From Minisyncoccota bacterium (lineage in GTDB: Bacteria > Patescibacteriota > Minisyncoccia > Phycocordibacterales > JAQTLZ01): a stretch of DNA of 64,000 nucleotides. Below, piece by piece: positions 31,199-51,362 of this stretch (the stretch's first letter is position 1; the number at the start of each line of letters is the position of its first letter). The notes beneath the pieces were generated by a model. The model did no database searches, had not been told where the DNA came from, and saw only the letters and a list, made by a program, of their open reading frames with translations. A program made the position numbers and the translations under genes. The stretch spans positions 15,650 through 79,649 of the forward strand of contig JAQTLZ010000001.1 of NCBI GenBank assembly GCA_028714635.1, written 5' to 3'.

Positions 31199-34100
31199 AT
31201 GAAAACAATCCACGAGAAACTTCAGAACGGAAGCCAAGCCTACGCCGACTGGCACAACAAGCCGGCGCATCCGTATGTTCATGGAGCGATCTATGTAGCC
31301 GTCCTCTTTTTTGCTATTCAAGCGGTAGCTATCGACACGAATTCTCTTATTGACAGTTATTTTAGCTCAACATCTTTTGTTACAATTGCCGTCCGCTCGC
31401 TTGCCACTAATGTCAAAGCCCTGACAGACAAAGCGGTCTTCCTGGCTGAAGCGTTGCGTTCGTATCCGGAAAATCAAAGACCGGCGCTTTCCGCCGAACT
31501 TGAACAGACTCTCGCGAATCGCTTTGCCGCGCTCTCACGTCTTGCCGACAGCAACTCGCAGAGTTTCCTTTCCTCGATCTTTACGGCGGAACAGAGAGCG
31601 CTCATGCCCGCATCGGTTGCTTCCGCAATAGAGACGCCTGTCAATCCGAATGATACCTATACCTATCTGGTGAAGCATTCTGATGAAGGTCTTTGTGAAT
31701 CTCCGGCGCACTCCGACAATCCCAAAGCTCCTCCGCCTGCCGAAAAGCACTGCGATGCCCGCGGCATTTTCCAAGACCGCTTGAAAGGCAAAGACGGCAA
31801 CATTTTTGAAGCTCATTTTGGGGGCAAGAAACCGCGCCTCGGCGAACAAATCAAAATCAAGAAAGGCCAGAGAGTGGGCCAGCAGATTGTTGTATCGGCA
31901 GATGCCGATGCTACTGAAGTGGTTGCTCCGATAAAGGCGCAGTTGGGCGCAGGTGGCGCAGGCGCAGGCGGGTCAACCTCAAGCATGCCGACGACGGGTG
32001 TTAAAACCGTGCTCTACATGCTCGTCGGTTTTCCCGATGTCGTTGATACCACAGGATCAATTACGGGTACGGTAGGTGGAATACTTGCTCCGGGATTGCC
32101 GGGATCGTCTGGATCGTCACAGGTTAGCGAAGCTCAGGCTATGACTGACGCTCAATCAGAAATGGGAAAGGTGAATCAATTCCTGTCGGATAATTCCCAC
32201 GGTTTGACTTCATTTTCAACGGTCGTCACTCCGCTTCTTGTTTTGCCCAACACCTCAACTTATTATGCGAGCCATACATCCTTCCCATACGGTGATGACC
32301 TGATCCAGGCCGATGCCCGCGCTGCCGCCCTCGCCAAAGGGTATAACTATCTGGATTACACTCTTGATGCCGTCCGTTACAACGGCAGTTACGGCAATTT
32401 CGGCGGCGAAGCATACATTGGCAGCCGAGGCGTGTGGCTCAAGTCATCCCGCTTTACCGTGGCGGCTCATGAATTCGGCCACAACTATGGTCTTTTCCAC
32501 GCCAACACATGGGTTACTACTGATGGGACGACGCTTGGAGCTGGCGCGAATCAAGAGTATGGTGACTTATTCGACAGCATGAGCAGCAGTTCGTTGGGAG
32601 GATATTTCAACGCATTTGAAAAATATTGGTTGCAATGGCTTCCTCCTGCAAACACTACGTCAGTCACCACAAGTGGCACGTATGCTGTCAGTTCCTTCGA
32701 CCAGCCCGCTTTCAGTGCTGGACTCAAATATGCTCTCAAAATTACCAAAGATACCGATCGCGATTATTGGATCGGTTTTCGGCAGGGTTTCCCGGCAAAT
32801 ATCTGGGAGACGAATGGCGCTGAAGTGCTTTGGGATCCTTGGACAAATAGCAACGGCGGCAGCCAGCTTTTGGACACGAACCCTGGCGGTACGAATGGCT
32901 GGAATGACGCCGCACTTGTTGTTGGTCGCACTCTTGCGGATACCAGCGCAGGAATATATATAACACCGATACGTAAAAATCCGGCAAATGGGACAGTCCC
33001 CTCATCAATAGATGTGGTGGTAAATCTCGGCGCATTTTCCGGAAATGTCGCCCCAACCCTTTCTGTGGCGCCAAGCGCGACTTCCATTCCGATGTATCAG
33101 CCTGTTACTTTTACCCTGAACGCAAATGACGGGAACGGGGATGCTTTGGCATACTACTGCGATTTCGGAGACAAAACATTCAGCAACATGAGCGCTGGTG
33201 TTCTTTCTAAGGTATACGTTGCGCCCGGCACATTCACGGTTATGTGTGAAGTTTCCGACATGAAAGGCGGAAAAGCGACAGCGGCAACGAGTCTTACGGT
33301 AACGGCTGCTGCCCCTCTCAACAATATGTTCGCCAATGCTTTTGTTCTCACAGGCTCAGCAGCGAATGCGACCGGCGCGAATAATTACGCTACGAAGGAA
33401 TCCGGCGAACCGACTATCGCCAGCACGATCGGCGGCAAGTCGGTCTGGTGGACGTGGACCGCGCCCGCTTCAGGAGCGACCACCATCGCTCTCGCGGGAA
33501 GCAATTTTGATACGCTCCTCGGCGTCTATACCGGTACGGCAGTCAACGCTCTCACCCTCGTCGCTTCAAATGATGATAATGGAACTTCGCCTCGAAGCAG
33601 GGTTGTCTTTAATGCTACGGCGGGAACGACATACCACATTGCAGTAGATGGATATGGCGGGTCATGGGGAAACATTGCTCTTTCTGTGTCCGGGCCTTCC
33701 GCCACTGTCAATACAGCGCCGACTGTCGCCACTTCCGCCAGCGTTTCCCCAAGTCCTGTGACGGGAACCACCGCTACACTTTCTGCTCTTGGCACTGATG
33801 ATGGGGGAGAATCCGCACTCACCTATACTTGGGCTGTTACGGGCACACCTCCTGGTCCTGTCGTCTTTAGTACAAATGCAACCAATGCCGCAAAGATAAC
33901 CACTGCTACTTTCGACAAAGCCGGTACTTACAACCTCCAAGTTACTGTCAAAGATGCTGGTAATCTATCAGTCACAAGTTCTGTTACGGCAACAGTCAAT
34001 CAAACACTCTCCACTCTTTCTGTCACACCAGCTACGGCAACGGTTTTGACTTCCGGAACGCAACAATTTAGCGCGGTTGCAAAAGACCAGTTTGGAAATC

Positions 34101-35632
34101 TGCTCACCGTGGCGCCCGCCCTCACCTGGGCGGTTTCGGGCGGCGGATCGATCAATTCCGCCGGCCTCTTCACTGCTGGTTCCACCGCGGGCGGGTCGTT
34201 CACGGTCACGGCCACCAGTGGCGCGGTGTCGGGCACAGCCACAGTTACGGTAGGCGCCGTGCCAATTCTCACGACAATTTCCGTGTTCCCAAGCTCCACG
34301 CTGGTCGCGACTAACGGAACCAAGCAGTTTACCGCAACGGCCAAGGATCAGTTTGGTGTTGCGCTTTCACTTCAGCCAACATTCACTTGGAGCGTTACTG
34401 GCGGAGGTACTATTTCTTCCACCGGCCTTTTCACTGCGGGGTCCACTTCAGGCGGGCCTTACACTGTGGCGGCGTCAAGTGGTGGTGTCAGTGGCACGAC
34501 TACTCTCTCGGTCATCGTCATTCCGGTGCTAACGACAATTACCGTTTCTCCTTCCAATCCAACTGTTCAGCCGGGAGGAACCCAACAATTCACCGCGACT
34601 GGAAAAGATCAGAATGGCAGCACTCTCACGTCCCAACCGACATTCACCTGGAGCGTCTCGGGTGGTGGCACGATGAGCGCAAGTGGTCTCTTTACCGCAA
34701 GCGCCACCGCGAAGGGTTCGTACACGGTTACTGCGACAAGCGGCAGCGTTTCTGGAACTGCTTCCGTCAGTGTTCCTGCCGTCCTAAAATCCATCACTCT
34801 TTCTCCTTCCAGCGCTTCAGTGCAGACAAACGGAACACAGCAATTTACAGCCCAAGGTGTTGATCAGACCGGCGCATCCATGACCTTCGCCCCGGTTTGG
34901 ACGGTAAATGGGGGAGGCACGCTCTCTTCGAGCGGCCTCTTCACTGCCGGAGGCACAGCGGGTGGTCCATACACGGTGACCGTCACCAACAATCCTGTTA
35001 CCGCAACCGCCAGCGCTTCTGTCACAATCACCGCGCCAGCTCCTGTTCTCACATCGATCACTCTTTCTCCGATCTCCGCTTCGCTTGTTTCCGGAGCGAC
35101 ACAAACATTTACCGCTACCGCAAAAGATCAAAATGGAACTGCGATGTCTCCACAACCAAGTTTCACTTGGACAGCAACTGGCCAATCATCACTTGCACCG
35201 AGCGGTTCTACAGCGACCTACACAGCGGGCAACACGGCAGGCGCTTCCTTTGGAATAACAGCTTCTTCGGGAGGGAAAAGCGCCACCGCTCCTATTAGTA
35301 TCACGGTGCCTGTGACACCGTCTCCCCCGCCACCAACAGGGGGAGATGTCACTCCGCCTACGGTCAGCTTGAAACCTCCGCCTTCTAATGGTGACATCAT
35401 ACAGAGAAGTACAAGGACTCTTTGGGCCAACGCCTCTGACAATGCAAAAATTGCCAAAGTGGAATTCTACGCCAACACCACTTTGCTTTGCACTGTCAAA
35501 CGCTCCGCCAATTTTTACTGCAATTGGGATCCGACCGGTAGCAGCGTCACCTACAATCTCACGGCAAAAGCCTACGACACGTCGAATAATTCCGCCGTCT
35601 CTCCTGTGGTCACAGTGACGACAGTTCCCTAA
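31199..35632 (+). CDS. Giant secreted/membrane-anchored zinc metalloprotease (HExxH) with PKD, pre-peptidase C-terminal (PPC) and ~12 Big_2 Ig-like repeats
   Basis: N-terminal TM helix; AAHEFGHNYGLFH zincin motif; PKD-like YYCDFGDKTF; PPC-like domain (TTYHIAVDGYGGSWGNIALSVSG); repeated ~85-aa Big_2 units (GLFTAGSTAGGSFTVTATSG...TATVTV). Confidence 0.7.
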   Translation: MKTIHEKLQNGSQAYADWHNKPAHPYVHGAIYVAVLFFAIQAVAIDTNSLIDSYFSSTSFVTIAVRSLATNVKALTDKAVFLAEALRSYPENQRPALSAELEQTLANRFAALSRLADSNSQSFLSSIFTAEQRALMPASVASAIETPVNPNDTYTYLVKHSDEGLCESPAHSDNPKAPPPAEKHCDARGIFQDRLKGKDGNIFEAHFGGKKPRLGEQIKIKKGQRVGQQIVVSADADATEVVAPIKAQLGAGGAGAGGSTSSMPTTGVKTVLYMLVGFPDVVDTTGSITGTVGGILAPGLPGSSGSSQVSEAQAMTDAQSEMGKVNQFLSDNSHGLTSFSTVVTPLLVLPNTSTYYASHTSFPYGDDLIQADARAAALAKGYNYLDYTLDAVRYNGSYGNFGGEAYIGSRGVWLKSSRFTVAAHEFGHNYGLFHANTWVTTDGTTLGAGANQEYGDLFDSMSSSSLGGYFNAFEKYWLQWLPPANTTSVTTSGTYAVSSFDQPAFSAGLKYALKITKDTDRDYWIGFRQGFPANIWETNGAEVLWDPWTNSNGGSQLLDTNPGGTNGWNDAALVVGRTLADTSAGIYITPIRKNPANGTVPSSIDVVVNLGAFSGNVAPTLSVAPSATSIPMYQPVTFTLNANDGNGDALAYYCDFGDKTFSNMSAGVLSKVYVAPGTFTVMCEVSDMKGGKATAATSLTVTAAAPLNNMFANAFVLTGSAANATGANNYATKESGEPTIASTIGGKSVWWTWTAPASGATTIALAGSNFDTLLGVYTGTAVNALTLVASNDDNGTSPRSRVVFNATAGTTYHIAVDGYGGSWGNIALSVSGPSATVNTAPTVATSASVSPSPVTGTTATLSALGTDDGGESALTYTWAVTGTPPGPVVFSTNATNAAKITTATFDKAGTYNLQVTVKDAGNLSVTSSVTATVNQTLSTLSVTPATATVLTSGTQQFSAVAKDQFGNLLTVAPALTWAVSGGGSINSAGLFTAGSTAGGSFTVTATSGAVSGTATVTVGAVPILTTISVFPSSTLVATNGTKQFTATAKDQFGVALSLQPTFTWSVTGGGTISSTGLFTAGSTSGGPYTVAASSGGVSGTTTLSVIVIPVLTTITVSPSNPTVQPGGTQQFTATGKDQNGSTLTSQPTFTWSVSGGGTMSASGLFTASATAKGSYTVTATSGSVSGTASVSVPAVLKSITLSPSSASVQTNGTQQFTAQGVDQTGASMTFAPVWTVNGGGTLSSSGLFTAGGTAGGPYTVTVTNNPVTATASASVTITAPAPVLTSITLSPISASLVSGATQTFTATAKDQNGTAMSPQPSFTWTATGQSSLAPSGSTATYTAGNTAGASFGITASSGGKSATAPISITVPVTPSPPPPTGGDVTPPTVSLKPPPSNGDIIQRSTRTLWANASDNAKIAKVEFYANTTLLCTVKRSANFYCNWDPTGSSVTYNLTAKAYDTSNNSAVSPVVTVTTVP

Positions 35633-35650
35633 CAAGAAGCGCGCCCAAAA

Positions 35651-35743
35651 GCCAGCCAGTCGCTCCACGAGATTGGTGTTCTCAAGGAGACGGTGGGCAT
35701 GAAAATCAGGAACGGGGAAGGACTTGGCACGATCAAATTCTAA
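35651..35743. repeat. Repeat R2b (~93 bp) directly after the protease stop codon
   Basis: Continues in frame after the TAA and encodes ...SLHEIGVLKETVGMKIRNGEGLGTIKF*, homologous to the C-terminus of ORF 30805-31023. Confidence 0.7.
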
Positions 35744-35908
35744 CGCTGGTTTTGCGGCCACCCGGCTGCCTCGAAAAGTGGCTGCCAGTGCCGGCGTGCC
35801 CGGCAGAAAAGTCAGAGAAAGTTTTCATTGCGGGGCTGGTGAACTTGCATATACTCGCCATCACCTAAGCAAGTCGGGGCAGACAACAAGGTGAAAGGAG
35901 GAGGGGTC

Positions 35909-36418
35909 ATGCCGGAAGAAGTTCTCGGCGGGATGTGGGAAAGCATCAAGACAGAGTGGGAATCGGCCCGGCCACAGGTGACGGGGCATTGCACGCTCAT
36001 TGAAGATTTCCAAGCTTCGCCCACTCACTTTTACGGCCTCGTCGAAAAGGCAATTGAGCGCCGCAAGATTCCGGGTCTGCGCATGTCGCATGTCCTGCAT
36101 CGGGAAGGCTGGATCATGTCCGCGGCGCGCGAGTACCTGCGCGCCGAGCGCGGCAAGATTTCGTTTGAAATCTGCGGCGCGCCCTTCGGGACCGGGTTTT
36201 TCGTGTCGTGCCGCATGATCGTCATGCCGGAAAAGAATGGCATCTTCGCCCGGATTTGGAAGTTCCTGTTCAATCCCAACACCTTCTACCAAATGGACGT
36301 TGCCGCCATGTACCAATCGGCAATCGAATCAGCGGTGAAGGAAGCGAAGAACGAATTGACGCAGACGAAACTCTCCGTGCCGGGCCTGCGCACCAGCGCT
36401 GTTCCGGTGCTTGCGTGA
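35909..36418 (+). CDS. Hypothetical protein (170 aa), first gene of a three-gene operon
   Basis: Strong GGAGGAGGGG SD; no recognised family; ends 5 nt before the ATPase start. Confidence 0.4.
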   Translation: MPEEVLGGMWESIKTEWESARPQVTGHCTLIEDFQASPTHFYGLVEKAIERRKIPGLRMSHVLHREGWIMSAAREYLRAERGKISFEICGAPFGTGFFVSCRMIVMPEKNGIFARIWKFLFNPNTFYQMDVAAMYQSAIESAVKEAKNELTQTKLSVPGLRTSAVPVLA

Positions 36419-36423
36419 CGGCC

Positions 36424-39400
36424 ATGAGCGCAAACGAATACGCCCTGGCCCGGCCTCAAGCGCACGGCAGCACCGCCGATTTGGTCGCGAGCGAATTCTC
36501 CCGCTGGCTTGCCTTGGGGCAAGGCACGCGGGAATGGGATTTCCCTGTCTTTATCGAGCCGCCCTACAGTCCGATCATCGTCGCTCCCGCTGTTATCGAG
36601 GACGACGGCAGGCAGCCGACGATTCTCAGCGCTCTGGCGGATACCGTCGGCAACTGGCTGAGTCCGAAAAAGAGACCCGCGCCTAAAGCGAACACGGTCG
36701 TTGCCGGCGATCTCAATTGGCTGGCATTTCCCAATTGCAGCACGCCCGTTGAATTTCAAGCGCTCATTCCTCCGCACATCAGCATCCGCAAGGACAGCTT
36801 CGAGCAATTCTTAATGAGCGTCAGGTACTGCCACTTTCCGCTCTGTTTCGAATTGATCGGCCGCGCGGATTCGATCACGGTTCAACTGGTCGCGCAGCAA
36901 GATGACGTGGCGCACGTCGAACCGCAACTCGCGGCGCACTTTCCGGACATTGTCTTCGCTAAACGCACGGGGCATCTGGAAAAAGTCTGGCAGGAGACGG
37001 AAGGCGAGCATCGCTTTCTTTTTGGGTTCAGCCTGTTGCAGCCGTTTCTCCTGCCGCTCGAATCCTATCGGGGTTTTCCCGTCGATCCGCTCGTTGGCCT
37101 GGCTGGCGCACTTTCCGACATCCGCAAGGACGAGGCCGCCGTCTTCCAAGTGCTCTTTGAACCGGCGCGCAATCCGTGGCTTGAGACGCTGGCTCAAGTC
37201 GCCGAGTTCGCGCCGGAACTCAGCCCGCATATTCGCAAGAAGATTGCGTATCCGTTTTTTGCGGTGGTGGCGCGGCTGGCTTGCAAGGCCGCGAGTGAAG
37301 AGCGCTTGGTGCAATTGCTCAAGAATCTCGACGGCGCGATGCGCGTATTTTCAACCCCTGCTGGAAACGGATTGACCGTGCTTTCCAACAAGGGCTATTC
37401 GAGTGGCCGGCAGGAAATTGATCTGTTACTGCGACAAACGCACCGCAGCGGCATGTTGCTGAACAGCGACGAACTGCTGGGCCTTGCGCATTGGCCGACA
37501 CCCGCGGTGCGCACGCCGAAGCTGGACCGCGCCACGCGCAAGACAAGGCCGGCGCCCACGCTCTGCCTGAATCATGCGTTGACGCTCGGCACGAACAACC
37601 ACAACGGAGAAGACAGCACCGTGACGCTCGCGCCCGCGCAGCGCGTCAAGCACATGCACGTCGTCGGCGCGTCGGGCACCGGCAAGTCAACGTTTCTACT
37701 CAACCTCATCATCCAGGACATTGAAAACGGCGAGGGCGTCGGCGTGCTCGATCCGCATGGCGACCTTGTGGATGAAATTCTCGCCCACATTCCCGCAGAA
37801 CGCCACGACGATGTGGTCCTCGTCGATCCGTCCGATGAAGAATACCCGGTCGGTTTCAATATCCTTTCGGCGCACTCGAATCTCGAAAAGAACCTGCTGG
37901 CTTCGGACCTCGTTTCCGTTTTTCGCCGCCTGTCCACAAGCTGGGGCGATCAAATGACCTCAGTGCTCGGAAACGCCGTGCTCTCGTTTTTGGAAAGCAG
38001 CACTGGCGGCACGCTCTCCGATTTACGGCGGTTTCTGATTGAACCGGGCTTCCGCGCGGAATTTCTTGAAACGGTGCGTGACGAGGAAGTCGTGTATTTC
38101 TGGAAGAAGGAATTTCCGCTCCTCTCCGGCAAGCCGCAAGCATCGCTGTTGACCCGGCTCGATTCCTTCCTGCGCCCCAAGCCGATTCGCCACATGGTTT
38201 GCCAGAAGGAGAACAAGCTCGACTTCGCGAGCATCATGGATTCCAAGAAAATCTTTTTGGCGAAACTCTCGCAAGGATTGATCGGGCAGGAAAACTCATA
38301 CCTGCTTGGCTCGCTGTTCGTCTCGAAATTCCATCAACTTGTCATGGGCCGTCAGGAAGTGCGCCAGTCCGAACGTGAAAACTTCTGGCTCTACCTCGAC
38401 GAATTTCAGAATTTCGTCACCCCGTCGATGGCGGCGATTCTCTCCGGCGCGCGTAAATACCGCCTCGGCCTTATTCTCTCGCACCAGGACATGCACCAAC
38501 TGGTGAGCCGCGATCCCGATGTGGCAAATGCCGTCCTTGCCAACGCCTTTACGCGCGTCTGTTTCCGGCTCGGCGACTCCGACGCGCGGCGCATGACCGA
38601 AGGCTTCTCGAATTTCGATGCTCACGATTTGCAGAGCTTGGGCACCGGCGATGCAATCTGCCGCATTGAGCGTTCCGCCTTCGATTTCAACATGTATACC
38701 GCATTGCCGGAACTCGTTGACGAAGAACTCGCCGAAGAACGGCGGCGGCGCATTCGGGAATTTTCGCGCGCCAAGCACAGCAAGAGGCGGACGGAGCTTG
38801 AGCCGCCGCGAGGCCAGACTCCGGCAGCGCCAGCATTCCCCAAAGCCGAAGATACCACTCCCACGCCAGCGGCGCCGAGGCCCGAACCCGCGCCGCTCCA
38901 AATCGCCAAGTCCACTCCAGGCAAAGGCGGCCACGAGCACAAAGTTTTTCAGCAAGTGCTTTGCGATTGGGCTGGCGATCTCGGCTTTACGGCTGCAATC
39001 GAACAGGAACTTCCGAGCGGACAGGGCAGTGTCGATGTCGAAATCGAAACCGGCTCCGAATCCATCGCCTGCGAAATTTCCGTCACAACCAGTATTGCCG
39101 ATGAACTGAGCAATCTCACGAAATGCCTGACGGCCGGCTACGATCACCTGCTGATGATCTGCACCGATCGCGGCAAACTCGACGCCTTGAAACGCAGTGC
39201 CGCTGCCAAGTTTCCTGCTGACGCGCTTGAGCGGGTCCAGTTTGTGACGCCAACCGAAGCGTTCCAATTCCTGCATAGCTTGATCGACGGCGTCTCAATC
39301 ACGGCGAAAGGCGCGCTGTCAAGTTACGGATGCGACGTGCGCGTAAATTACCCGCCCGCCGCGAGCGCACCTTCCAGCAAGAAAGGCGGCGTGGCGCAAG

Positions 39401-39444
39401 CCGTCAGGAATGCCACCAAGCGTCTTCGCGACGGAAGAAAATAG
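36424..39444 (+). CDS. Large P-loop NTPase of the TraD/VirD4/HerA-FtsK (AAA_10/TraG-D_C-like) class, with a ~430-aa non-membrane N-terminal region and a C-terminal nuclease-like domain
   Basis: Walker A HVVGASGTGKST, VLDPHGD, Walker B LYLDEFQNF, and a LILSHQDMHQL motif; no TM helices. The C-terminal ~150 aa (VDVEIETGSESIACEIS) are acidic and possibly PD-(D/E)xK-like. Confidence 0.55.
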   Translation: MSANEYALARPQAHGSTADLVASEFSRWLALGQGTREWDFPVFIEPPYSPIIVAPAVIEDDGRQPTILSALADTVGNWLSPKKRPAPKANTVVAGDLNWLAFPNCSTPVEFQALIPPHISIRKDSFEQFLMSVRYCHFPLCFELIGRADSITVQLVAQQDDVAHVEPQLAAHFPDIVFAKRTGHLEKVWQETEGEHRFLFGFSLLQPFLLPLESYRGFPVDPLVGLAGALSDIRKDEAAVFQVLFEPARNPWLETLAQVAEFAPELSPHIRKKIAYPFFAVVARLACKAASEERLVQLLKNLDGAMRVFSTPAGNGLTVLSNKGYSSGRQEIDLLLRQTHRSGMLLNSDELLGLAHWPTPAVRTPKLDRATRKTRPAPTLCLNHALTLGTNNHNGEDSTVTLAPAQRVKHMHVVGASGTGKSTFLLNLIIQDIENGEGVGVLDPHGDLVDEILAHIPAERHDDVVLVDPSDEEYPVGFNILSAHSNLEKNLLASDLVSVFRRLSTSWGDQMTSVLGNAVLSFLESSTGGTLSDLRRFLIEPGFRAEFLETVRDEEVVYFWKKEFPLLSGKPQASLLTRLDSFLRPKPIRHMVCQKENKLDFASIMDSKKIFLAKLSQGLIGQENSYLLGSLFVSKFHQLVMGRQEVRQSERENFWLYLDEFQNFVTPSMAAILSGARKYRLGLILSHQDMHQLVSRDPDVANAVLANAFTRVCFRLGDSDARRMTEGFSNFDAHDLQSLGTGDAICRIERSAFDFNMYTALPELVDEELAEERRRRIREFSRAKHSKRRTELEPPRGQTPAAPAFPKAEDTTPTPAAPRPEPAPLQIAKSTPGKGGHEHKVFQQVLCDWAGDLGFTAAIEQELPSGQGSVDVEIETGSESIACEISVTTSIADELSNLTKCLTAGYDHLLMICTDRGKLDALKRSAAAKFPADALERVQFVTPTEAFQFLHSLIDGVSITAKGALSSYGCDVRVNYPPAASAPSSKKGGVAQAVRNATKRLRDGRK

Positions 39445-43118: not shown

Positions 43119-46100
43119 TTGAAATCAATGACGAGAAAGGGCCTGAGTCAGTTTTCCATTGGGATGTCAGCTCTTTTGCTGTTGGCAATTTTCCTTGCTG
43201 CCGGGTCCGTTCTCGCCGTCCCGCCGGATTCACCGTACGCGCCGGGAGAGACACTTGATCCCGCGTGTGCTCCTGGGGAACCGAATTGCACGGTGAGCAC
43301 AATTTCCCCCTGGGGAAGCATTACGGGCACGCTTTCCAACCAAACTGATTTGCAGTCCGCGCTGGACGCGAAGGCATCGACCACCGCGAATATTTCCGGC
43401 TTCACCAACGACATCGGTTATCAAACCGCCGCAAATGTTTCCACGTACGTCACGGGGCTTCCCATTTCAACATTCACAAACGATGCCGGCTTCATCACCA
43501 ATTCTTCTTTGAGCGGGTATGTTCCGTACACGGGCGCCACGGGGAATGTCAATTTGGGCGCAAACAATCTCACAACGTCTGGCACGCTCTCCGCCGCTAA
43601 TCTTTCCGGCGTCAACACCGGAGACCTCACCTTGAGTGACGTAACGGGTCTTTCTCTTTCCGGACAAGTGCTTTCCGTTACCTCTGGCTATGCCATTCCG
43701 CTTACCGCTTCGACCACGAACTGGAACAGCTTCTTAGACACGCCGTCCACCCGTATCAGCGCGGGTACTGGCCTTTCATGGAGCGGGAATACGCTCAATG
43801 CTACAGGCGGTGCCGGCTCCGTCACCTCCGTTGACGCCTCCGGCGGCGCGACCGGCCTTTCCTTCAGCGGCGGCCCGATCACTACATCCGGCACGTTGAC
43901 GCTTTCAGGCATTCTTGGTGTGGGAAGCGGAGGCACGGGAACTTCCACCGCTCCGTCATTCGGTCAGGTTCTCCTCGGCAACAATTCGGGAGGGTATGAT
44001 TTGGTGGCCACTTCTTCCCTCGGATTTAGCGGTGGTCCCATTTTCGCTGACAGCCCTCTCACCGGAGACGGCACATCAGGAAATCACTTAACGATCCCCG
44101 GTCTTTTCATCAATGTTCCGAATAATGTCTATGGAATCGGGGATTCTGCGAATACGTTGGTTGGAAATACCGGAACTGATGTCAATGCACTCGGACCATT
44201 GGCCGCCCAAAGCAACATCGGCAACGATGTCAACGCTTTCGGAGGAAATGCCGCATACCAAAACATCGGGGCGAATGTAAACGCTTTGGGAAACAACGCC
44301 GGGAACGGCAATACTTCCGGCGACGTCAACGCCTTTGGTTCTTCTGCAGGTCAAGGCAACTCTGGCACCTCTCTCAATGCTTTGGGAAGCGGAGCAGGTC
44401 AAGGAAACTCCGGAGGAAACGTCAATGCTTTCGGTTCTGCTGCGGCAAACGGAAACACAGCAAACAATTTGAACGCTTTTGGAAGTGGGGCAGGCCTTTC
44501 CAACACAGGGACAGATGTAAACGCTTTCGGACAGTCTGCTGGATTCTCAAACACCGGTACCAATTCTAACTTCATGGGAAATCTGGCGGGCATAGGTAAT
44601 TCTGGAAACAATGTCAATGCTTTCGGAAATGGAGCTCTTAACAGCAACACCGGCAATGACATCGTTGCCATAGGCAACGGAGCGGGAAGTTTCAACACCT
44701 ACAACAACCTGGCTTTGTTTGGAATTGGCGCCACCGCATCTTCGAGCAATCAGGCACAGTTGGGAACAGACTCAAACCCTCTCGATACCTATATCCACGG
44801 CAACCTCTCTTTCACTGGAGGCTTGTATGACAGTGCTTCTTCACTGGGAACTTCCGGCTATGTCCTTTCCTCTACCGGTTCGCAGGTGCAGTGGGTGGCG
44901 ACCTCAACTCTCGGACTTGGAGGCTCGAGCGGGACGGTGAGTTCTGTAGATGCTTCCGGCGGTACAACAGGACTCACTTTCTCTGGTGGTCCTATTACCA
45001 CTTCAGGCACACTGACGCTTGGCGGGGTTCTGGGAACGGCAAATGGCGGGACGGGAACATCAACCACAGCGAACAACAGCATTTTTGTTACCAATGGTTC
45101 CGGCACACCATCATGGCGCACGACGCTCCCTGCCTTCACCCTCGGCGGAACAGTCACCGGCAACTCCCAAAATCTCACCGGCCTCAATCAACTCACGGTG
45201 ACCGGCGCTACTGCCACCTCCACGTTCTCGACCGGAGGCTTCACCATCGGCGGCAATCAGTTTGTGGTGCAGCAGACTTCGGGAAACATCGGCATCGGCA
45301 CTTCGGTTCCGGGATCGAGATTTCATGTTCTGTCCTCTTTCGGAAATTCATCCAATTCTATTTTCACCACAAATGATTTTGTCAGCGGTTCTACGGGAAG
45401 TGACTTATCAATTAGTTTTGGAGCAACCAGTGGCAATACATCTTCTGTCTTAACCGCCGCAACTGCAGGGGGCAGTTTATTTGGCGCAATGGAATTCGAT
45501 GCAAGCAAGTTTGCATTCATGAACGGCAACGTCGGCGTCGGCACCACTACTCCAGCGACGAAGCTCCACATCCTCGGCACCACCGAACAGCTCCGCCTCG
45601 GCTACGACGCGTCCGACTATGCTTCCTTCACGGTCGGCTCTGACGGCGCGTTTTCTATCACTCCAACAAATAGCGCCACTACTACCGTCACCAACGCGCT
45701 CGTAGCGTCAAACCTCTCTGGCACGAACACGGGAAATGTCACTCTGACAGGAGAAAATTATCTTTCGCTTTCCGGCCAGCAGATTACGGCGAGCGCAATC
45801 AATTTGAGCGGCTCGAACGTGACCGGCACATTGGCGGTCAACAAAGGCGGCACCGGAACCACCACCTTCGGCGGCGCCAACACCCTTCTTTATACCACCG
45901 CCGCCGATGCGCTTTCCTCCATCGCCACCGGCAACAACGGCGTGCTCATCACGTCCTCTGGCGGTGTACCCTCAATTTCTTCAACCCTTCCCGCTGCCGT
46001 GCAGGGCAACATCACCTCGCTTGGCACGCTCACAAGCGGCGTGTGGAACGGTTCGGCAATCGGCCCGACCTATGGCGGCACGGGCCTCACCTCCTACGCA

Positions 46101-47912
46101 ACCGGCGATCTCATCTATGCTTCAGGGTCGAATACGCTTGCAAATCGGATAATCGGAAATGCCGGTGACGTTCTTTCGGTTTCGGGCGGAGTGCCGACAT
46201 GGATGGCGACCTCGACGCTCGGTATTATCTCGTCACAATGGATCACCAATGGCCCGGATATTTATTTCAACACCGGCAACGCCGGGATCGGCATTGCGTC
46301 TCCCTCCGCCAAGCTTGATATTCTAGGCGCCACCGAACAGCTTCGCCTGCGCTACGATACGAGCGACTATTCATCACTCACTGTTGATTCAGGCGGAGGC
46401 TTGACCATTTCCGGTTCTGGCGCAAACAGCGGGAAATTATCTGCCGGAATATTTGCCGCCACCTCAAGCACAACCCCTTCAACCTTCAACGATGTTACGC
46501 TCGGAAGCCAGGTGGAAGGCGATGCCCCGGTTCAATTCGGCATTGATGGGAACGCCTGGACCATCGGCTATTTATCGGCGGACAAGTCATTCAGGATTGC
46601 GTCGTCAACAACACTCACGAGCAATGTCGCCCTTGCGGTTTTGAAAGGCGGATTGGTCGGGATTGGGACGGTCGCCCCCACTCAAACGCTCACGGTGCAG
46701 GGCGGAGTATGTGTTACGGCAGGCAACGCCTGCCCTTCGGAAGTCTCCGGCAAGATCGTGGCCCAGGGACTCATCGTCCAGAGCGCTTTTGACCTTGCGG
46801 AAAATTATCCGACGGCCGACGAGACGCTTTCCGCCGGGGAAATCGTTTCTCTCGATCCCGCAAACCCCGGATTTATCTTGCGGGCGGAACAATCAACGAT
46901 GACGCCGCTTCTCGGAATTGTCTCGACAGCTCCCGGTCTTACCCTGGGAGATTCGGCAAAGAGCAAGCCTATCGCGCTCTCCGGCCGCGTGCCCGTTAAG
47001 GTCAATCTCGAAGGCGGCGCTATCGCCGTCGGGGACAGGATCGCGCTCTCGTCCGTCCCCGGCGTCGGCAAAAAGGCCGCTCTGGCGGAAGAGTCGGTCG
47101 GCATTGCCCTGAGCGCGCTTTCTTCGCCGAATGGCACTGTCGTGGTCTTTGTCCAAAGCCGTGAGGCTGCTTCTCCGTCAATTTCTTCGCCGGGCGCTGA
47201 GACGGTTTCCTCGCTATTCTCGACACTCGCTCAACCTGTCGCGGCTGCTTTTAGATCTCTCGGCGTTGCGCTAACCGACACGGTCACTTATTTCAAAAAT
47301 CTTGTGGTCGAAAAGATTACCGCGCTCACCGGAGTGTTCGAAAGCGTGGATACGTATAATGCTCATATTAAAAATGATCTTGAGGTTGGCGGGAATGTTC
47401 AGGCCGGCGGGAATGTTTCGATTGACGGCGGGCTGCAACTCAAAGACGAGGCCACGGGCGAAACCTATTGCGTAAAAATCCGCAACGGCGACTGGAACAA
47501 AGAGAAAGGACTTTGTACGGCGGCAACCTCAACGCCTGTCCTTGCGACACCGCTGGTTGAAGCCCAAACCCCAACTCCATCTCCATCCCCGGCTCCTTCT
47601 TCTGGTGTGGGAGCGGAAGCGCCGGCACCGGCTGTTTCTCCGGAGGCAACCTCCACGCCAGATGCTTCCCCGGCTCCTTCCGCAACTTCTTCGCCGACGC
47701 CCTCCGCTTCACCTGCTTCAGATATTTCTCCAAGCCCGACTCCTTCTCCAACGAGTCCCGAACCAAGTCCTGAAATAACTTCATCGCCCGCGCCGGAAGC
47801 CACGACAACTCCTTCGCCTGAAGTGGCGCCGCCACCCGATGAACCGGCCGCGACACCAACTCCCGCGCAAGACAGCGCTCCAACTTCGGATGAACCTCCC
47901 GCAACGCCATAA
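43119..47912 (+). CDS. Giant (1597 aa) secreted surface protein with Hep_Hag/YadA-head-like short repeats and a Pro/Ser/Thr-rich C-terminal tail
   Basis: Signal peptide; ~25 tandem ~14-15-aa repeats (G.DVNAFG..AG.GNTG); a duplicated ~33-aa motif (TGLSFSGGPITTSGTLTL.G.LG..GGTGTST); C-terminal SPSPTPSPTSPEPSPE low-complexity tail. Confidence 0.6.
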   Translation: MKSMTRKGLSQFSIGMSALLLLAIFLAAGSVLAVPPDSPYAPGETLDPACAPGEPNCTVSTISPWGSITGTLSNQTDLQSALDAKASTTANISGFTNDIGYQTAANVSTYVTGLPISTFTNDAGFITNSSLSGYVPYTGATGNVNLGANNLTTSGTLSAANLSGVNTGDLTLSDVTGLSLSGQVLSVTSGYAIPLTASTTNWNSFLDTPSTRISAGTGLSWSGNTLNATGGAGSVTSVDASGGATGLSFSGGPITTSGTLTLSGILGVGSGGTGTSTAPSFGQVLLGNNSGGYDLVATSSLGFSGGPIFADSPLTGDGTSGNHLTIPGLFINVPNNVYGIGDSANTLVGNTGTDVNALGPLAAQSNIGNDVNAFGGNAAYQNIGANVNALGNNAGNGNTSGDVNAFGSSAGQGNSGTSLNALGSGAGQGNSGGNVNAFGSAAANGNTANNLNAFGSGAGLSNTGTDVNAFGQSAGFSNTGTNSNFMGNLAGIGNSGNNVNAFGNGALNSNTGNDIVAIGNGAGSFNTYNNLALFGIGATASSSNQAQLGTDSNPLDTYIHGNLSFTGGLYDSASSLGTSGYVLSSTGSQVQWVATSTLGLGGSSGTVSSVDASGGTTGLTFSGGPITTSGTLTLGGVLGTANGGTGTSTTANNSIFVTNGSGTPSWRTTLPAFTLGGTVTGNSQNLTGLNQLTVTGATATSTFSTGGFTIGGNQFVVQQTSGNIGIGTSVPGSRFHVLSSFGNSSNSIFTTNDFVSGSTGSDLSISFGATSGNTSSVLTAATAGGSLFGAMEFDASKFAFMNGNVGVGTTTPATKLHILGTTEQLRLGYDASDYASFTVGSDGAFSITPTNSATTTVTNALVASNLSGTNTGNVTLTGENYLSLSGQQITASAINLSGSNVTGTLAVNKGGTGTTTFGGANTLLYTTAADALSSIATGNNGVLITSSGGVPSISSTLPAAVQGNITSLGTLTSGVWNGSAIGPTYGGTGLTSYATGDLIYASGSNTLANRIIGNAGDVLSVSGGVPTWMATSTLGIISSQWITNGPDIYFNTGNAGIGIASPSAKLDILGATEQLRLRYDTSDYSSLTVDSGGGLTISGSGANSGKLSAGIFAATSSTTPSTFNDVTLGSQVEGDAPVQFGIDGNAWTIGYLSADKSFRIASSTTLTSNVALAVLKGGLVGIGTVAPTQTLTVQGGVCVTAGNACPSEVSGKIVAQGLIVQSAFDLAENYPTADETLSAGEIVSLDPANPGFILRAEQSTMTPLLGIVSTAPGLTLGDSAKSKPIALSGRVPVKVNLEGGAIAVGDRIALSSVPGVGKKAALAEESVGIALSALSSPNGTVVVFVQSREAASPSISSPGAETVSSLFSTLAQPVAAAFRSLGVALTDTVTYFKNLVVEKITALTGVFESVDTYNAHIKNDLEVGGNVQAGGNVSIDGGLQLKDEATGETYCVKIRNGDWNKEKGLCTAATSTPVLATPLVEAQTPTPSPSPAPSSGVGAEAPAPAVSPEATSTPDASPAPSATSSPTPSASPASDISPSPTPSPTSPEPSPEITSSPAPEATTTPSPEVAPPPDEPAATPTPAQDSAPTSDEPPATP
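44150..44720 (+). repeat. Tandem Hep_Hag-like coding repeats inside the 1597-aa gene
   Basis: Recurrent GTCAA(C/T)GC(T/A)TT(C/T)GG units. Confidence 0.6.
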
Positions 47913-47969: not shown

Positions 47970-50900
47970 ATGAAAAAACTACTGCTCACACTATCTCTTG
48001 TTTCTTTCATCTTTCTTTTCAGCCCGCGGCTGGCTTTTGCCGCCACCAAATACTGGTCCGGCACCGGCACATGGAACGCCGCCAATACCAACTGGGGCAC
48101 CAGTCCGGGCGGTCCTTACAACGCCGCAACTTTCAATACCGGCGACGATGCCGTATTTGAAGGAAGCGCCGGTACTGTAACCGTATCTGCGCCGAATCAT
48201 CCCAATTCCATAACGTTCAACAAGACTGGATACACATTAAACAGCGGCACGCTGACTCTCGATGGCCCCTCAATCGCCGTAAGCTCCGGCGCCGCCACCA
48301 TCAATTCAAGCATTGCCGGCTCCGCCGGCCTTGCCAAGAGCGGTGGCGGAACGCTCACGCTATCCGGCAACAACTCCTTTACCGGCGGCTTGACCGTGAA
48401 GTCGGGCACACTCGAGGGCACGGGGAGCGTGAATGCCTTTGGCGGCTCTGGAACCGGCGCCATCACCCTCGGTGATTCCAGCGGCAGCGCCAACGCCACG
48501 CTGAGCGGCGGCGCCGGTCCATTTGCCAATCCGATCTCCGTGGCCTCCGGCAACACGGGCGCCGCCACCATCATCAGAAACGGTGTCGGCGGCAATAGCA
48601 CTTTCAGCGGCGCGGTCACGCTCAACTCGCATAACCTCGTCCTCAATCCCGGCGGCAATGCGCTCAGCATGAGCGGCGGCTTCACGGGCGCCGGAAATCT
48701 TGCATTCAATTCCTCGTTCAACTCGATCACTATTCAAACCGGCAGCGTCAACAACACGGGCACGATCACGCAATCTGGCGCCGGCGCGGTGACGGTGAGC
48801 GGCGGTGTCGGCGCCAACGTCACGGACATTATTCAAAACGGCACGGCGTCTCTCACCATCAGCACGACGGCGCTCACCGTCAATAGCGGCGGCACTACCT
48901 TGACCAACACCAGCAGTAACGGATCTCTATTGACCGTCTCCGGCGGCGTGAACGGCACGGGCAACCTCATTATCAAGAACAATACCGGCACGGCCAACGC
49001 TGTCACGCTCTCGACAAATAGCGTCAACAACACCGGCGCGGTCACCAACTCCGGCGCCGGCAGCGGCGGCGCCACCATCAGCGCGGTTGTTGGCGTCAAC
49101 GTCACTGGAGTGGTTCAAAACAGCGCCAGCTCAAGTTTGACACTCAGCGGCGCCAACACGTACACCGGCCCGACAACGGTCAGCGCCGGCACGCTTCAAG
49201 CGGGCGTGGCCTCGGTGGCAAACGTCAGCGGCGCATTTGGCAAAAACTCTACTGTGACGATGGCGAACGTTGCGGGCGCCGCCTTGAATATCACCGGCTT
49301 CAATACACAGATCGGCTCTCTCACCGGCGGCGGAGCGGCGGGCGGCAACGTGACGCTCGGATCCGCGACGCTGACGGTTGGCGGAGACAACACCAGTCCG
49401 GCGGCGTACGCGGGCGTGCTCTCCGGCGCGGGCGGCCTGACCAAGATTGGCGCCGGAACGTTGACGCTGACGGGGATAAATACCTATGCCGGCGCGACGA
49501 CCATTGCCGCGGGAACATTGAACGCAAATTCCACCTCGGCGCTCGGCAGCGGCGGCGCGGCCAACACGCTCATCTTCAGCGGCGGCGCCTTGCAAGCCTC
49601 CGGCGCCATTACTTCACCGGGCACCCGGACACTGACGCTGACCAGCACCGGCCTCATTGACACCAACGGCCAGAGCGTGAGCATTGCCGGAGTCATGAGC
49701 GGCGCGGGCGGTCTTACCAAATCCGGCGCGGGCACGCTCACCCTCTCCGCCGCCAATACCTTCACGGGCAAAACCAGCATTACCGGCGGCGCCCTGAGCG
49801 TTACCAACAATGGCAATCTCGGCGCAACCCCTGGTTCTGTCACTCCAGACAGCATCACGCTTAACGGCGGCACTCTTCAATTCACGGGCGGCACGACCGG
49901 CCAAACTGCCACGCTCGCCACCAACCGCGGCATCACGCTCGGCAGCCTGGGCGGAACCCTCAAAATCACGTACACGGTAGCGAGCGGCTCTTTCAACGCG
50001 CTGACGGACACTCCCTCATTCGTTTACTCGGGCATTATCGCCGGCACAAGCGGCGGTAACCTGGCCATCCAGGGCGGCGCTGGCACGAATAACGGATCCA
50101 ATCCGTACCTCTTTAAGTTTAATGGCGCTTCCACCTACAATGGCAACACTACCATTGATAACGCTACTCTGACCTATTTCAATTCCGGGTCGGCGGGCGA
50201 CAATCGCCTGCCTGCGAGCACAGTCCTTACTATTATCAATAATGGGGCGTTCAATATTTGCGGTCAGGCTTCCGGCACAAGGACCCAGACTCTCGCGGGT
50301 CTCATCGGTGACTCGACGGCTAAAGTCGGCGGCACGAACCAGGTAAATCCCGCTGTGCTGGCGCTCAATCCCTCTGCTTCCAGTTTCACCTGGAGCGGCG
50401 TTATTGGTGTCACCACCGTAGTCGACAAGACCGGCATAAACAGCTTGCAATCGGTGGTTAAATCCGGCGCAGGCACGGAGATTTTTGCCGGTCAAAATAC
50501 GTACGCGGGCGCGACGAACGTGAATGCCGGAGTGCTTCGGGCGGGCGTGGCTTCGGTGGCAAACGTCAGCGGCGCGTTTGGCAATAATTCAGCCGTGACC
50601 CTGGCAAATGCCGCGAGCGCCGTTTTGGACCTTGCGGACTTCAATACGCAGATTGGGTCTTTGACCGGCGGCGGCGGAACGGGCGGTAACGTGACGCTCG
50701 GATCCGCGACCCTCACGGTTGGCGGCGACAACACCAGCCCGGCGGCGTACGCGGGCGTGCTCTCCGGCGCAGGTTCTCTGGCCAAGATCGGAACAGGCGC
50801 TTTTTCAATCTCGAACACTGTCACTCTCGGCGGCGATTTTACGATTTCCGCCGGAACCGTCTCGGCTAATAGCTCTATGATGAACGTAGCTGGCAACTGG

Positions 50901-51362
50901 AGCAACTCGGGAACATTTTCTGCCGGAACGAGTATGGTCACCCTTAATGGAGCGGGCGCGCAGACAATGAGCGGGGCCAACACTTTTTACGGATTGGCGA
51001 TCACTGGCGGCGGCCGGACCGTCTCTTTTCAAAGCGGCGCGGCTCAGTCAATCGCGGCAAACGGCTCGCTGGCCCTGAGCGGCTCTGCCGGCCACCTGCT
51101 CACGCTCGCTCCGTTGACTCCCGCTTCCGAGTGGCAGCTTCACCTTGATGCCGCCGCCGCTCAAGCTGTTTCGTATGTTTCAGTTTCGTATTCAAATGCG
51201 GGCGGTTTTGCCGAGGTGAATGCCGCCAACGGGACAAACAGCGATGGCGGCAATACCACAAACTGGAATTTCGGCGCAATCATCAATCATGCGGCGCGGC
51301 TGAAGATTTGGAATGCCTCCCTGCGAATATCAGGCGGTTCCCGCTTGCGCATCACACGCTAA
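47970..51362 (+). CDS. Giant (1130 aa) secreted protein built from autotransporter-associated beta-strand (PATR) repeats
   Basis: Signal peptide MKKLLLTLSLVSFIFLFSPRLAFA; many GAGTLTLSG.NT(F/Y)TG.T.(V/I).(S/A)GTL units; two near-identical ~40-aa segments (GVASVANVSGAFG.NS.VT.ANAA). Confidence 0.65.
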   Translation: MKKLLLTLSLVSFIFLFSPRLAFAATKYWSGTGTWNAANTNWGTSPGGPYNAATFNTGDDAVFEGSAGTVTVSAPNHPNSITFNKTGYTLNSGTLTLDGPSIAVSSGAATINSSIAGSAGLAKSGGGTLTLSGNNSFTGGLTVKSGTLEGTGSVNAFGGSGTGAITLGDSSGSANATLSGGAGPFANPISVASGNTGAATIIRNGVGGNSTFSGAVTLNSHNLVLNPGGNALSMSGGFTGAGNLAFNSSFNSITIQTGSVNNTGTITQSGAGAVTVSGGVGANVTDIIQNGTASLTISTTALTVNSGGTTLTNTSSNGSLLTVSGGVNGTGNLIIKNNTGTANAVTLSTNSVNNTGAVTNSGAGSGGATISAVVGVNVTGVVQNSASSSLTLSGANTYTGPTTVSAGTLQAGVASVANVSGAFGKNSTVTMANVAGAALNITGFNTQIGSLTGGGAAGGNVTLGSATLTVGGDNTSPAAYAGVLSGAGGLTKIGAGTLTLTGINTYAGATTIAAGTLNANSTSALGSGGAANTLIFSGGALQASGAITSPGTRTLTLTSTGLIDTNGQSVSIAGVMSGAGGLTKSGAGTLTLSAANTFTGKTSITGGALSVTNNGNLGATPGSVTPDSITLNGGTLQFTGGTTGQTATLATNRGITLGSLGGTLKITYTVASGSFNALTDTPSFVYSGIIAGTSGGNLAIQGGAGTNNGSNPYLFKFNGASTYNGNTTIDNATLTYFNSGSAGDNRLPASTVLTIINNGAFNICGQASGTRTQTLAGLIGDSTAKVGGTNQVNPAVLALNPSASSFTWSGVIGVTTVVDKTGINSLQSVVKSGAGTEIFAGQNTYAGATNVNAGVLRAGVASVANVSGAFGNNSAVTLANAASAVLDLADFNTQIGSLTGGGGTGGNVTLGSATLTVGGDNTSPAAYAGVLSGAGSLAKIGTGAFSISNTVTLGGDFTISAGTVSANSSMMNVAGNWSNSGTFSAGTSMVTLNGAGAQTMSGANTFYGLAITGGGRTVSFQSGAAQSIAANGSLALSGSAGHLLTLAPLTPASEWQLHLDAAAAQAVSYVSVSYSNAGGFAEVNAANGTNSDGGNTTNWNFGAIINHAARLKIWNASLRISGGSRLRITR

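Follow-up and report, generated by a model that had tools for sequence, protein, structure and literature searches.

Are the three giant surface proteins encoded between positions 31199 and 51362 of this stretch of DNA carried by a mobile element, and, if so, what might they bring to the bacterium that harbors them? The stretch, 64,000 nucleotides (nt) long and hereafter called the window, was obtained from a member of Candidatus Paceibacterota, within the candidate phyla radiation (CPR; Patescibacteria), and an earlier note on its sequence had claimed that a mobile element carries the three proteins, designated here P1, P2 and P3, as cargo. The claim was borne out in part, since the element and its cargo stood up while several domain labels and the idea of phase variation did not. 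The region is probably the cargo of a composite mobile element integrated into the chromosome, compositionally foreign to its host and equipped with attachment (att) sites and backbone genes. In the arrangement proposed, an element of 26.7 kb (element A) and a remnant of 2.3 kb (remnant B) would stand in tandem between 10-nt cores in the 3' end of gap, the gene for glyceraldehyde-3-phosphate dehydrogenase (GAPDH). The three giant open reading frames (ORFs) are indeed uninterrupted, with a total of 4204 amino acids (aa):

31199..35632, + strand: P1, 1477 aa; uninterrupted ORF with a predicted signal anchor, a catalytic region and an immunoglobulin (Ig)-like stalk
43119..47912, + strand: P2, 1597 aa from the first possible start (ATG at 43128; NCBI start at 43164)
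47970..51362, + strand: P3, 1130 aa; signal peptide, PATR units, C-terminal domain and terminal motif

Insertion in the 3' end of gap

The host flanks are of about 42% GC and include housekeeping genes, those for SecA, MurB, Obg, GatB and GAPDH on the left side and those for RpiB, Rpe and a split transketolase on the right side. Upon scanning of species-representative genomes with GAPDH, only metagenome-assembled genomes (MAGs) of the Patescibacteria type were found, the best matches being the Ca. Paceibacterota MAGs STB_28 (97% aa identity) and STB_34 (93%). In both of these MAGs, gap is followed directly by rpiB-rpe-tkt, whereas in the window gap and rpiB are about 30 kb apart. The boundaries of the intervening DNA are listed below (related loci and independent contigs are designated by L numbers).

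28472..29512, + strand: gap (GAPDH; Pfam Gp_dh_N/Gp_dh_C)
29451..29460, + strand: attL core GGTATACGCA; left arm host-like, right arm element-derived
56162..56171, + strand: middle att-like core GGTATACCCA; 1 mismatch, gap-3'-like arm to its right
56172..58430, strand not applicable: remnant B, 2,259 bp, 40.9% GC, att-flanked, without recombinase
58431..58477, + strand: attR core and displaced native gap 3' end (…HSLIWHVLEMGK*)

The exact 10-mer GGTATACGCA occurs twice in the window, at 29451 and 58431, both times in a gap 3' end, and the insert between the two exact cores is 28,980 bp in length. The 45-nt left arm of attL is 91% identical to the relative L002 and 56% to attR, while its 36-nt right arm is 53% identical to L002; against the relatives as a whole, the identities at this first core are 91-93% for the left arm and 50-53% for the right. 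The pattern is reversed at attR, where the left arm is 56% and the right arm 89% identical to L002. At the middle core, the right arm is 81% identical to the L002 attB (tblastx KLWYTHSLIWHVLEMGQ). When the left arm of the first core was joined to the right arm of the last, the reconstructed attB encoded MAWYDNEMGYTHSLIWHVLEMGK*, identical to the C-terminus of L002 GAPDH, and the reciprocal join, the reconstructed attP, contained a perfect dyad, GGGTAT-ACGC-ATACCC. The reciprocal hybrid arms and the rebuilt gap end altogether indicate site-specific recombination of a chromosomal attB with an attP of the element, and the insertion is thus site-specific, its att sites can be recognised and the site is empty in relatives, as expected of an integrative element. 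The last codons of gap, from 29461, come from the element, and the protein ends in …YTHTLVEHVVLAGKAEIDQ instead of the native …YTHSLIWHVLEMGK; with this replacement end from the element, the host ORF is kept open.

A tRNA gene as insertion target was ruled out, because the window contains none; neither tRNA genes nor Rfam families were found in the 64-kb scan. Promoter and terminator scans of the window gave counts no higher than chance.

With respect to the assembly, positions 29556-42051 and 50741-59935 are 100% identical in two independent Logan assemblies of run SRR22315509. The independent contig L087 begins at 29556, just inside the left junction, and attR together with the right junction is 100% identical in the independent L091, attR being present in L092 and L093 as well. 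Since P1 and the 3' end of the P3 gene (from 50741) are identical in independent assemblies, frameshift artefacts are unlikely in those stretches. P2, P3 and the neighbouring ATPase also have 100% identical counterparts among NCBI proteins, annotated as Candidatus Pacebacteria bacterium.

Element A, remnant B and the status of the cargo

Element A extends from 29461 to 56161 (26,701 bp) with 56.1% GC, and the GC content steps abruptly from 42% to 56% at both ends of the block. The GC content at third codon positions (GC3) is 0.62-0.72 for most backbone genes of element A and 0.57-0.58 for two small ones, whereas host genes range from 0.33 to 0.49. A Gly/Ala/Thr-rich composition of P1-P3 was considered as the source of their high GC content and rejected, because GC3 is raised too and the backbone genes behave likewise. 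The backbone genes are as follows.

29573..30148, + strand: MT-A70 family DNA methyltransferase (Pfam MT-A70, E=6e-30; GC3 0.72)
30284..30808, + strand: DnaD-like helicase-loader protein, 174 aa (PHROG 7498, E=6.9e-24)
35909..36418, + strand: conserved 169-aa partner gene upstream of the large ATPase
36424..39444, + strand: ATPase resembling type IV coupling proteins (T4CP-like), 1006 aa (DUF8128, TrwB_AAD_bind and TraG-D_C)
39456..40622, + strand: serine-recombinase-family protein of 388 aa (Rec388; Pfam Recombinase only)
41117..42712, + strand: large serine recombinase, 531 aa, candidate integrase (Pfam Resolvase 2.7e-20, Recombinase 1.7e-12, Zn ribbon 1e-8)
51493..52452, - strand: ArdC-like anti-restriction protein (Pfam ArdcN 4e-4, sub-threshold; PHROG 7245, 2.6e-8)
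52797..53852, - strand: DnaG-type primase (Pfam Zn_ribbon_DnaG 2e-15, DNAG_N, Toprim_2)
54744..55706, - strand: Replic_Relax protein, candidate relaxase or nicking initiator (Pfam 1.8e-24; PHROG 9381, 5.4e-11)
55737..56165, - strand: second, small T4CP-like ATPase, C-terminal part of about 140 aa, truncated at the middle att core

Integration would most likely be catalysed by the 531-aa protein, in which Resolvase, Recombinase and Zn_ribbon_recom domains are combined, so that the element carries a recombinase of its own; its matches to XisF and CcrA/B/C are weak (about 1e-23) and far below the cut-offs. The remaining backbone, a DnaD-like loader, a primase, a putative nickase of the Replic_Relax family, the 1006-aa ATPase with its two conserved partners, the ArdC-like protein and the MT-A70 methylase, suggests an integrative, probably mobilisable and plasmid-like element without a mating channel of its own. 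Candidates for both relaxase (Replic_Relax, 1.8e-24) and coupling protein (T4CP-like ATPase domains) are present, and no oriT was identified.

The 1006-aa ATPase has 325 relatives at E<=1e-10, those with organism names coming from several phyla (labels include Hydrogenedentota, Limnocylindria, Deltaproteobacteria and Sumerlaeota). Its 169-aa partner is 40-59% identical at the aa level to the gene at the same position in L082-L085 and L088-L090. Rec388, the second partner, lacks the catalytic N-terminal domain and covers positions 243-435 of a 651-position PHROG integrase; it is 59% identical to a 390-aa counterpart in L084 (3635-4807) and 38-44% to the full-length integrases of L085, L088 and L090. 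A frameshifted pseudogene was rejected as an explanation of Rec388, since L084 encodes a conserved protein of the same short form; the two contigs are unrelated, and in both the short form stands beside a DUF8128 ATPase. Rec388 may be a DNA-binding accessory protein or a directionality factor. A full-length recombinase gene adjoins the ATPase gene downstream in L085, and lies two or three genes downstream in L088 and L090.

The small-ATPase remnant resembles the C-termini of the small ATPases (about 400-436 aa) of L088 and L090, with 49-51% identity. Its N-terminal part was sought throughout the window, in case it should be restored on circularisation, and is absent. Element A bears marks of rearrangement. 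Remnant B contains small ORFs, namely a DUF5678 gene, an aspartyl-protease-like gene and a 70-aa membrane ORF, and the arrangement of A and B appears to be the product of tandem integration of two elements at one site. A segment of 150 nt of the DnaD-like gene (30589-30738) recurs at 57986-58135 in remnant B with 81% identity, which suggests that B derives from an element related to A.

For the status of P1-P3, the pairing of the 169-aa gene with the large ATPase was compared among seven other loci, with ATPase identities of 43-56% and GC contents of 34-58%; a serine-recombinase-family gene lies downstream of the module in four of the seven. The neighbours differ each time. Two FG-GAP-repeat proteins (955 and 562 aa) and an 885-aa protein without known function are encoded directly upstream of the ATPase module in L082 (868-9369; a metagenome contig of 34% GC), a 1150-aa protein with an N-terminal hydrophobic segment and repetitive sequence beside it in L090, and a 1283-aa nSTAND NTPase in L085; L089 carries type III restriction enzyme, methylase and UvrD/AAA_21 genes downstream and a DruA gene upstream. 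Within the window, a direct repeat brackets the P1 gene and its upstream region, with copies 89% identical to each other:

30930..31024, + strand: 95-nt direct repeat, copy 1, in the 3' end of a 72-aa gene (copy 2 at 35650-35744)

The differing neighbours of the module and this bracket indicate that P1-P3 are accessory cargo rather than a conserved part of a transfer machine, in agreement with the earlier note. As to its wording that the proteins are being moved, integration stands, and onward movement would be a matter of inference, given the lack of channel genes, the truncated ATPase and a Rec388 without catalytic domain.

The three giant proteins and other genes of the window

P1, P2 and P3 each contain exactly one hydrophobic segment, located at the N-terminus. 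Signal peptides had been claimed for all three; those of P2 (…LLLLAIFLAAGSVLA|VPPD) and P3 (…FSPRLAFA|ATKY) look classical, while P1 begins with 24 polar residues and has its hydrophobic segment at about aa 25-52, an N-terminus to be read as a signal anchor and not as a classical signal peptide.

Following this segment, P1 consists of a catalytic region (about aa 306-620), a PKD domain, a weak PPC domain, a K319L-like PKD domain, five Big_2 domains, a Pro-rich linker and a Big_7 domain. PKD (3.4e-12), K319L-like PKD, Big_2 and Big_7 are above the Pfam cut-offs, and the Ig-like domains number eight in total (five Big_2 at aa 939-1367, two of the PKD type and one Big_7). The HExxH motif and PKD of the earlier description are thus present, the former as HEFGHNYGLFH, whereas its count of about 12 Big_2 domains was too high and its PPC domain stays below threshold (21.0 bits against a cut-off of 25.9). 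Across 13 aligned sequences of the HExxHxxGxxH region, H124, H128, G131 and H134 do not vary, and E125 is kept in at least 90%. A search of cluster representatives with the catalytic region gave 3754 relatives at E<=0.001, of which 620 reached E<=1e-30; they form a large unnamed family mostly of giant multi-Ig proteins, and the closest named homologues are from Planctomycetota with about 57% identity. Members of the family give repeated sub-threshold matches to the M11, M66, M10 and M12 models and to the M6 domain model, and a match to InhA in PDB; for P1, TIGR03296 gave 23.7 bits against a cut-off of 110.8. P1 is thus predicted to be a metzincin-motif protease of an unnamed family: it shares with the known metzincins (M66 StcE, M11 gametolysin, M6 InhA, M10/M12) the conserved HExxHxxGxxH motif and sub-threshold model matches, but differs in reaching no curated cut-off and in belonging to its large unnamed family. 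A membrane-anchored, predicted zinc protease might in this way be held out from the cell on a stalk of eight Ig domains.

P2 is composed of the signal peptide, mosaic fibre modules, a repeat region, an autochaperone domain of the phi29 gp12 type and an S/T/P-rich tail. The whole protein gave no match in Pfam, NCBIfam, PHROGs or PDB sequences. About 25 Hep_Hag/YadA-head-like repeats had been proposed; none was matched by Pfam even at E<=10, either with the whole protein or with pieces, and a C-terminal membrane anchor barrel of the YadA type was not found in the same searches. Instead, 12 copies of a 16-aa G/N-rich unit (…NTGxDVNAFG…) were identified at aa 335-535, for which a single-sequence AlphaFold2 (AF2) model was of low confidence (predicted local distance difference test, pLDDT, 58) and its matches to beta-solenoid folds non-significant. 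The identity of the C-terminal part was clearer.

46791..47153, + strand: P2 aa 1225-1345, C-terminal autochaperone of the phi29 gp12 type

A 16-sequence profile of this segment matched PDB entries 6qz9 (E=4.8e-7) and 3gqh (1.3e-6), and its alignment-based AF2 model (pLDDT 83.4) gave 3gqh_A as the top Foldseek match (E=8e-5, probability 1.0, TM 0.54), so that sequence profile and fold both place it with the autochaperones of phi29 gp12-type tailspikes. Gp12 of phi29 is a trimeric spike, of which the C-terminal autochaperone is self-cleaved, and in the alignment the invariant Asp of the D-x-A-E motif falls on the very first residue of 3gqh, the crystallised released fragment of gp12. By this model, P2 resembles a phage tailspike and not YadA. 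It would fold as a trimeric fibre or spike, probably by way of the autochaperone, and then be cut by itself at the predicted site F1224|D1225 (…SAF|DLAENYP…), whereby the C-terminal 373 residues including the S/T/P-rich tail would be shed. The C-terminal 114 aa contain 31% Pro, 20% Ser, 17% Ala and 14% Thr; the SPTP-rich composition described earlier is real, and what had been called a stalk is here read as a tail.

The likeness to phi29 gp12 (PDB 3gqh, 3suc, 6qz9) is confined to aa 1225-1345. P2 differs in being, by its sequence, a Sec-exported cellular protein of 1597 aa and not part of a virion, in its mosaic, CPR-specific upstream modules, and in the presence of about 250 residues, including the S/T/P-rich tail, after the autochaperone domain. 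Nearly all of its relatives with organism names belong to Patescibacteria, and which pieces of P2 they share varies in a mosaic pattern; some relatives carry the phage-fibre domains Peptidase_S74 and Collar (precomputed Pfam).

P3 matches PATR PF12951 (E=6.9e-37) and TIGR02601 (1.5e-36). It had been described as consisting of PATR repeats throughout; the repeats are there, but they amount to 7-8 units between aa 121 and 1015. No autotransporter barrel (PF03797), PEP-CTERM or two-partner secretion domain was found by Pfam, while many relatives have a barrel, and the whole protein gave no match to PDB sequences. The named relatives belong to diderm phyla, including Verrucomicrobiota, Planctomycetota, Proteobacteria and Elusimicrobiota. 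P3 thus shares the PATR/TIGR02601 passenger repeats with type Va autotransporters and PATR adhesins of diderms, but differs in lacking the C-terminal barrel and in having a signal peptide and C-terminal domain that match a chromosomal protein of Paceibacteria. It may be an exported PATR-repeat protein without an outer-membrane barrel.

This chromosomal counterpart is found in the sister MAG STB_34, where the interval between secG and groES contains P0002, a P2 relative with 46% identity over the C-terminal half, followed by two ORFs. The first of these starts with MKKILLVLSLFFLVYLFNPVSAFAAT…, to be compared with MKKLLLTLSLVSFIFLFSPRLAFAAT… of P3; the second ends with …ARIKISNATLKILGGNRLRITQ, as against …ARLKIWNASLRISGGSRLRITR of P3, and shares with P3 a C-terminal domain of 180 residues (36% identity). 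The terminal motif of P3, …LRISGGSRLRITR, has its …LRITx ending in common with the STB_34 chromosomal protein. The cassette genes of STB_34 have a native GC3 of 0.33-0.38 (0.33 for the P2 relative), with no element genes nearby, which indicates that P2-P3 represent a two-gene surface cassette typical of the lineage; the copy on the element appears to be a diverged, GC-richer version. The motif …A-R-[LI]-K-I-x-N-A-[ST]-L-[RK]-I-x-G-G-x-R-L-R-I-T-x ends both P3 (51290-51362) and the giant protein of STB_34 (L081 18700-18777), and this extreme C-terminal motif could be a lineage-specific sorting or anchoring signal.

Internal segments of P2 and P3 had been described as near-identical substrates for recombination and phase variation. 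The pair in P2 (43820-43960 and 44936-45076) shares 91 of 141 bases and represents a protein-level repeat with synonymous divergence. The pair in P3 is longer.

49155..49450, + strand: P3 internal direct repeat (second copy at 50496-50791)

Its copies are 80% identical over 296 nt, with a more similar core of about 90 nt and a longest exact run of 32 nt (49398/50739), so that neither pair is near-identical. The P3 copies lie in frame at a distance of 1341 nt, and recombination between them, a possible but marginal event, would delete 1341 nt in frame. Recombination is thus plausible for the P3 repeat alone and not for the pair in P2, and phase variation found no basis, because homopolymer or short tandem tracts are absent in and upstream of the P1-P3 genes. 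The independent contig L091 begins at 50741, which is 2 nt into the second copy of this 32-nt run, indicating that the P3 repeat matters at least for short-read assembly.

Some further features were noted in the flanks. Between the displaced gap end and rpiB, a low-GC (34%) gene for a 290-aa membrane protein (58483-59355) appears to be a further variable insertion at the gap-rpiB spot, since L002 does not have it and L001 has a fragment of it at most. The genes gatB and gap are separated by intergenic DNA of about 360 nt that is rich in GC (about 54%; 28060-28450); L002, with about 38 nt between the two genes, lacks this stretch, for which neither an Rfam or tRNA match nor a further copy in the window was found. 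A second patch of high GC content (about 55%; 26050-26500) lies upstream of gatB in the low-GC flank; it probably contains a small minus-strand ORF and may represent a further acquired gene. In SecA (15114-17636), residues 11-416 match the 290-position SecA_DEAD model, which implies an insertion of about 120 residues in the motor domain. Positions 1054-12289 contain a cell-envelope glycan cluster with a fusion of phosphoenolpyruvate mutase and cytidylyltransferase, an enzyme resembling thiamine pyrophosphate-dependent decarboxylases and an iron-containing alcohol dehydrogenase (phosphonate pathway), and in addition LicD, a flippase, GDP-mannose dehydratase and an O-antigen-ligase-like protein; the cluster suggests a phosphonate-decorated surface polymer in this CPR bacterium.

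Alternative explanations and known systems

The integration of a composite element with P1-P3 as cargo has to be weighed against several observations that speak against it. No excision product, circular junction or empty site was found in the assemblies, and all three extra assemblies reaching attR carry the insertion. The left junction (29451-29555) is covered by the MAG contig only, and large serine recombinases usually need no extended att identity. The homology of the small ATPase stops at 56165, inside the middle att core, and Rec388, adjacent to the T4CP-like ATPase, is without catalytic domain. No VirB4 or other channel genes were detected among the island ORFs scanned (Pfam, NCBIfam, PHROG), the sole VirB4-related match being a P-loop hit of 15 bits within the T4CP-like ATPase, and the element is therefore at best mobilisable, integrative and plasmid-like. 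P1 stays below every curated peptidase cut-off (M66, 17.5-19.2 bits against 20.6; M11, 19.2 against 21). The GC3 values of P1 (0.52) and P2 (0.58) are below those of most backbone genes, and the cargo may thus differ in history from the backbone. Given the truncated ATPase and the state of Rec388, the element may be immobile now. The island could then be a fixed, decaying remnant that arrived by integration and no longer excises or transfers, with P1-P3 as ordinary chromosomal genes; this is somewhat unlikely, though a possibility to be taken seriously. The two defects just named, the lack of mating-channel genes among the ORFs checked, the recombinase-less remnant B in tandem and the insertion in every independent assembly reaching attR, with no empty site seen, would all agree with decay, but the 531-aa recombinase, the large ATPase, the Replic_Relax protein and the primase are all encoded by intact ORFs, and the GC3 is still far from that of the host, so that the arrival looks recent. 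The 59% conservation of the short Rec388 form in L084 argues for function, and the sister species (93-97% GAPDH identity) are without the insertion.

An origin of P1-P3 as the element's own transfer apparatus, holding donor and recipient together like PrgB of enterococcal plasmids, instead of as host-adaptive cargo, is quite improbable. Conjugation of monoderms depends on surface adhesins while the PrgB type was not found in Patescibacteria (PMC12102498), and large repeat proteins stand beside the ATPase in two of the seven related loci (FG-GAP in L082, the 1150-aa protein in L090); the protein families, however, differ at every related locus, with defence genes at that place in others, the P2-P3 cassette of STB_34 resides between secG and groES away from element genes, and P1 is a separate insertion within its 95-nt bracket. 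The abrupt GC step at both ends, and the left junction resting on one assembly with L087 starting at 29556, might raise the suspicion of an assembly or binning chimera, in which a GC-rich block was joined to a low-GC CPR contig. Such a misjoin is very improbable, because by chance it would not yield reciprocal hybrid att arms that rebuild the gap 3' end of relatives exactly; the right junction is reproduced in L091 and attR in two more assemblies, the flanks are syntenic with the sister genomes, and P2 and the ends of P3 are of the Paceibacteria type. Hardly more credible is a degraded prophage with P2 as its tailspike. The gp12-type autochaperone and the Peptidase_S74 and Collar domains of P2 relatives do recall phages, but no capsid, portal, terminase or tail genes were found among the island ORFs, the PHROG matches of the island concern replication, integrase and anti-restriction functions only, P2 itself having none, and P2 has a Sec-type signal peptide while genes of its type occur in a chromosomal, non-phage context in the sister MAG.

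If P1-P3 are the cargo of an integrated element, their likely role, judged from established knowledge, would be contact with another cell and processing of its surface. Cultivated CPR bacteria have an epibiotic lifestyle, which such a role fits. A broader idea, that the cell-contact hardware of ultrasmall, epibiotic CPR bacteria is exchanged as cassettes on integrative elements, would join the diverged P2-P3 allele and the Planctomycetota-related protease with an ATPase backbone of multi-phylum distribution; it is speculative and, at present, unlikely. If it were true, the partner range of a CPR bacterium could shift by one integration, and such events could be looked for at the 3' end of gap as an expected site of landing. 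Among cultivated bacteria, integrated elements that carry adhesin-type cargo are common, and it is the host, from a little-explored group, that is less ordinary here. The locus offers a cleanly delimited example, in which the site is empty in sister species, the att arms are hybrid and the composition is unameliorated; it also provides three concrete candidates for cell-surface interaction, including a cellular fibre with predicted gp12-type self-cleavage, and a recurrent module in which the 169-aa gene is combined with the DUF8128 ATPase and frequently accompanied by a gene of the serine-recombinase family.

The literature searched contained nothing specific on integrative elements or surface-protein islands in CPR, nor on DUF8128. 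A survey of Patescibacteria, which have small genomes, identified 5,713 T4CP homologues, mostly far from virB4, and 109 relaxases, without PrgB-type adhesins, leaving few recognised relaxases and thousands of orphan T4CP genes without context (PMC12102498). The locus fits this survey and gives one such orphan T4CP a context and travelling companions.

Among the known mobile elements, a self-transmissible integrative and conjugative element was not recognized, since no mating-pair-formation genes were found among the island ORFs scanned. Integrative mobilisable elements and serine-recombinase transposons of Firmicutes (Tn4451/TnpX and Tn5397/TndX; general knowledge) are closer, in their site-specific integration by a serine recombinase, in a candidate relaxase-type protein beside a candidate coupling-type ATPase, and likewise in variable cargo and the absence of a mating channel of their own. 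The element of the window, known from sequence alone, differs from these by its DUF8128-type ATPase of about 1000 aa, the 169-aa partner, the recombinase-family neighbour, and a relaxase candidate of the Replic_Relax family.

Staphylococcal cassette chromosome (SCC) elements of Staphylococcus, compared here from general knowledge, are integrated by the large serine recombinases CcrAB or CcrC at the 3' end of rlmH/orfX. Likewise, a large serine recombinase is found in the window together with an insertion at the 3' end of a housekeeping gene that leaves the frame open, short direct att repeats, and a tandem array with a recombinase-less, att-flanked remnant. The target is, however, gap and not rlmH, the recombinase scores 61-81 bits against Ccr equivalog cut-offs of 700-900, and the host is a CPR bacterium. 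SCC has no counterpart to the T4CP-like ATPases, the relaxase-like protein, the primase and the DnaD-like loader of the element in the window.

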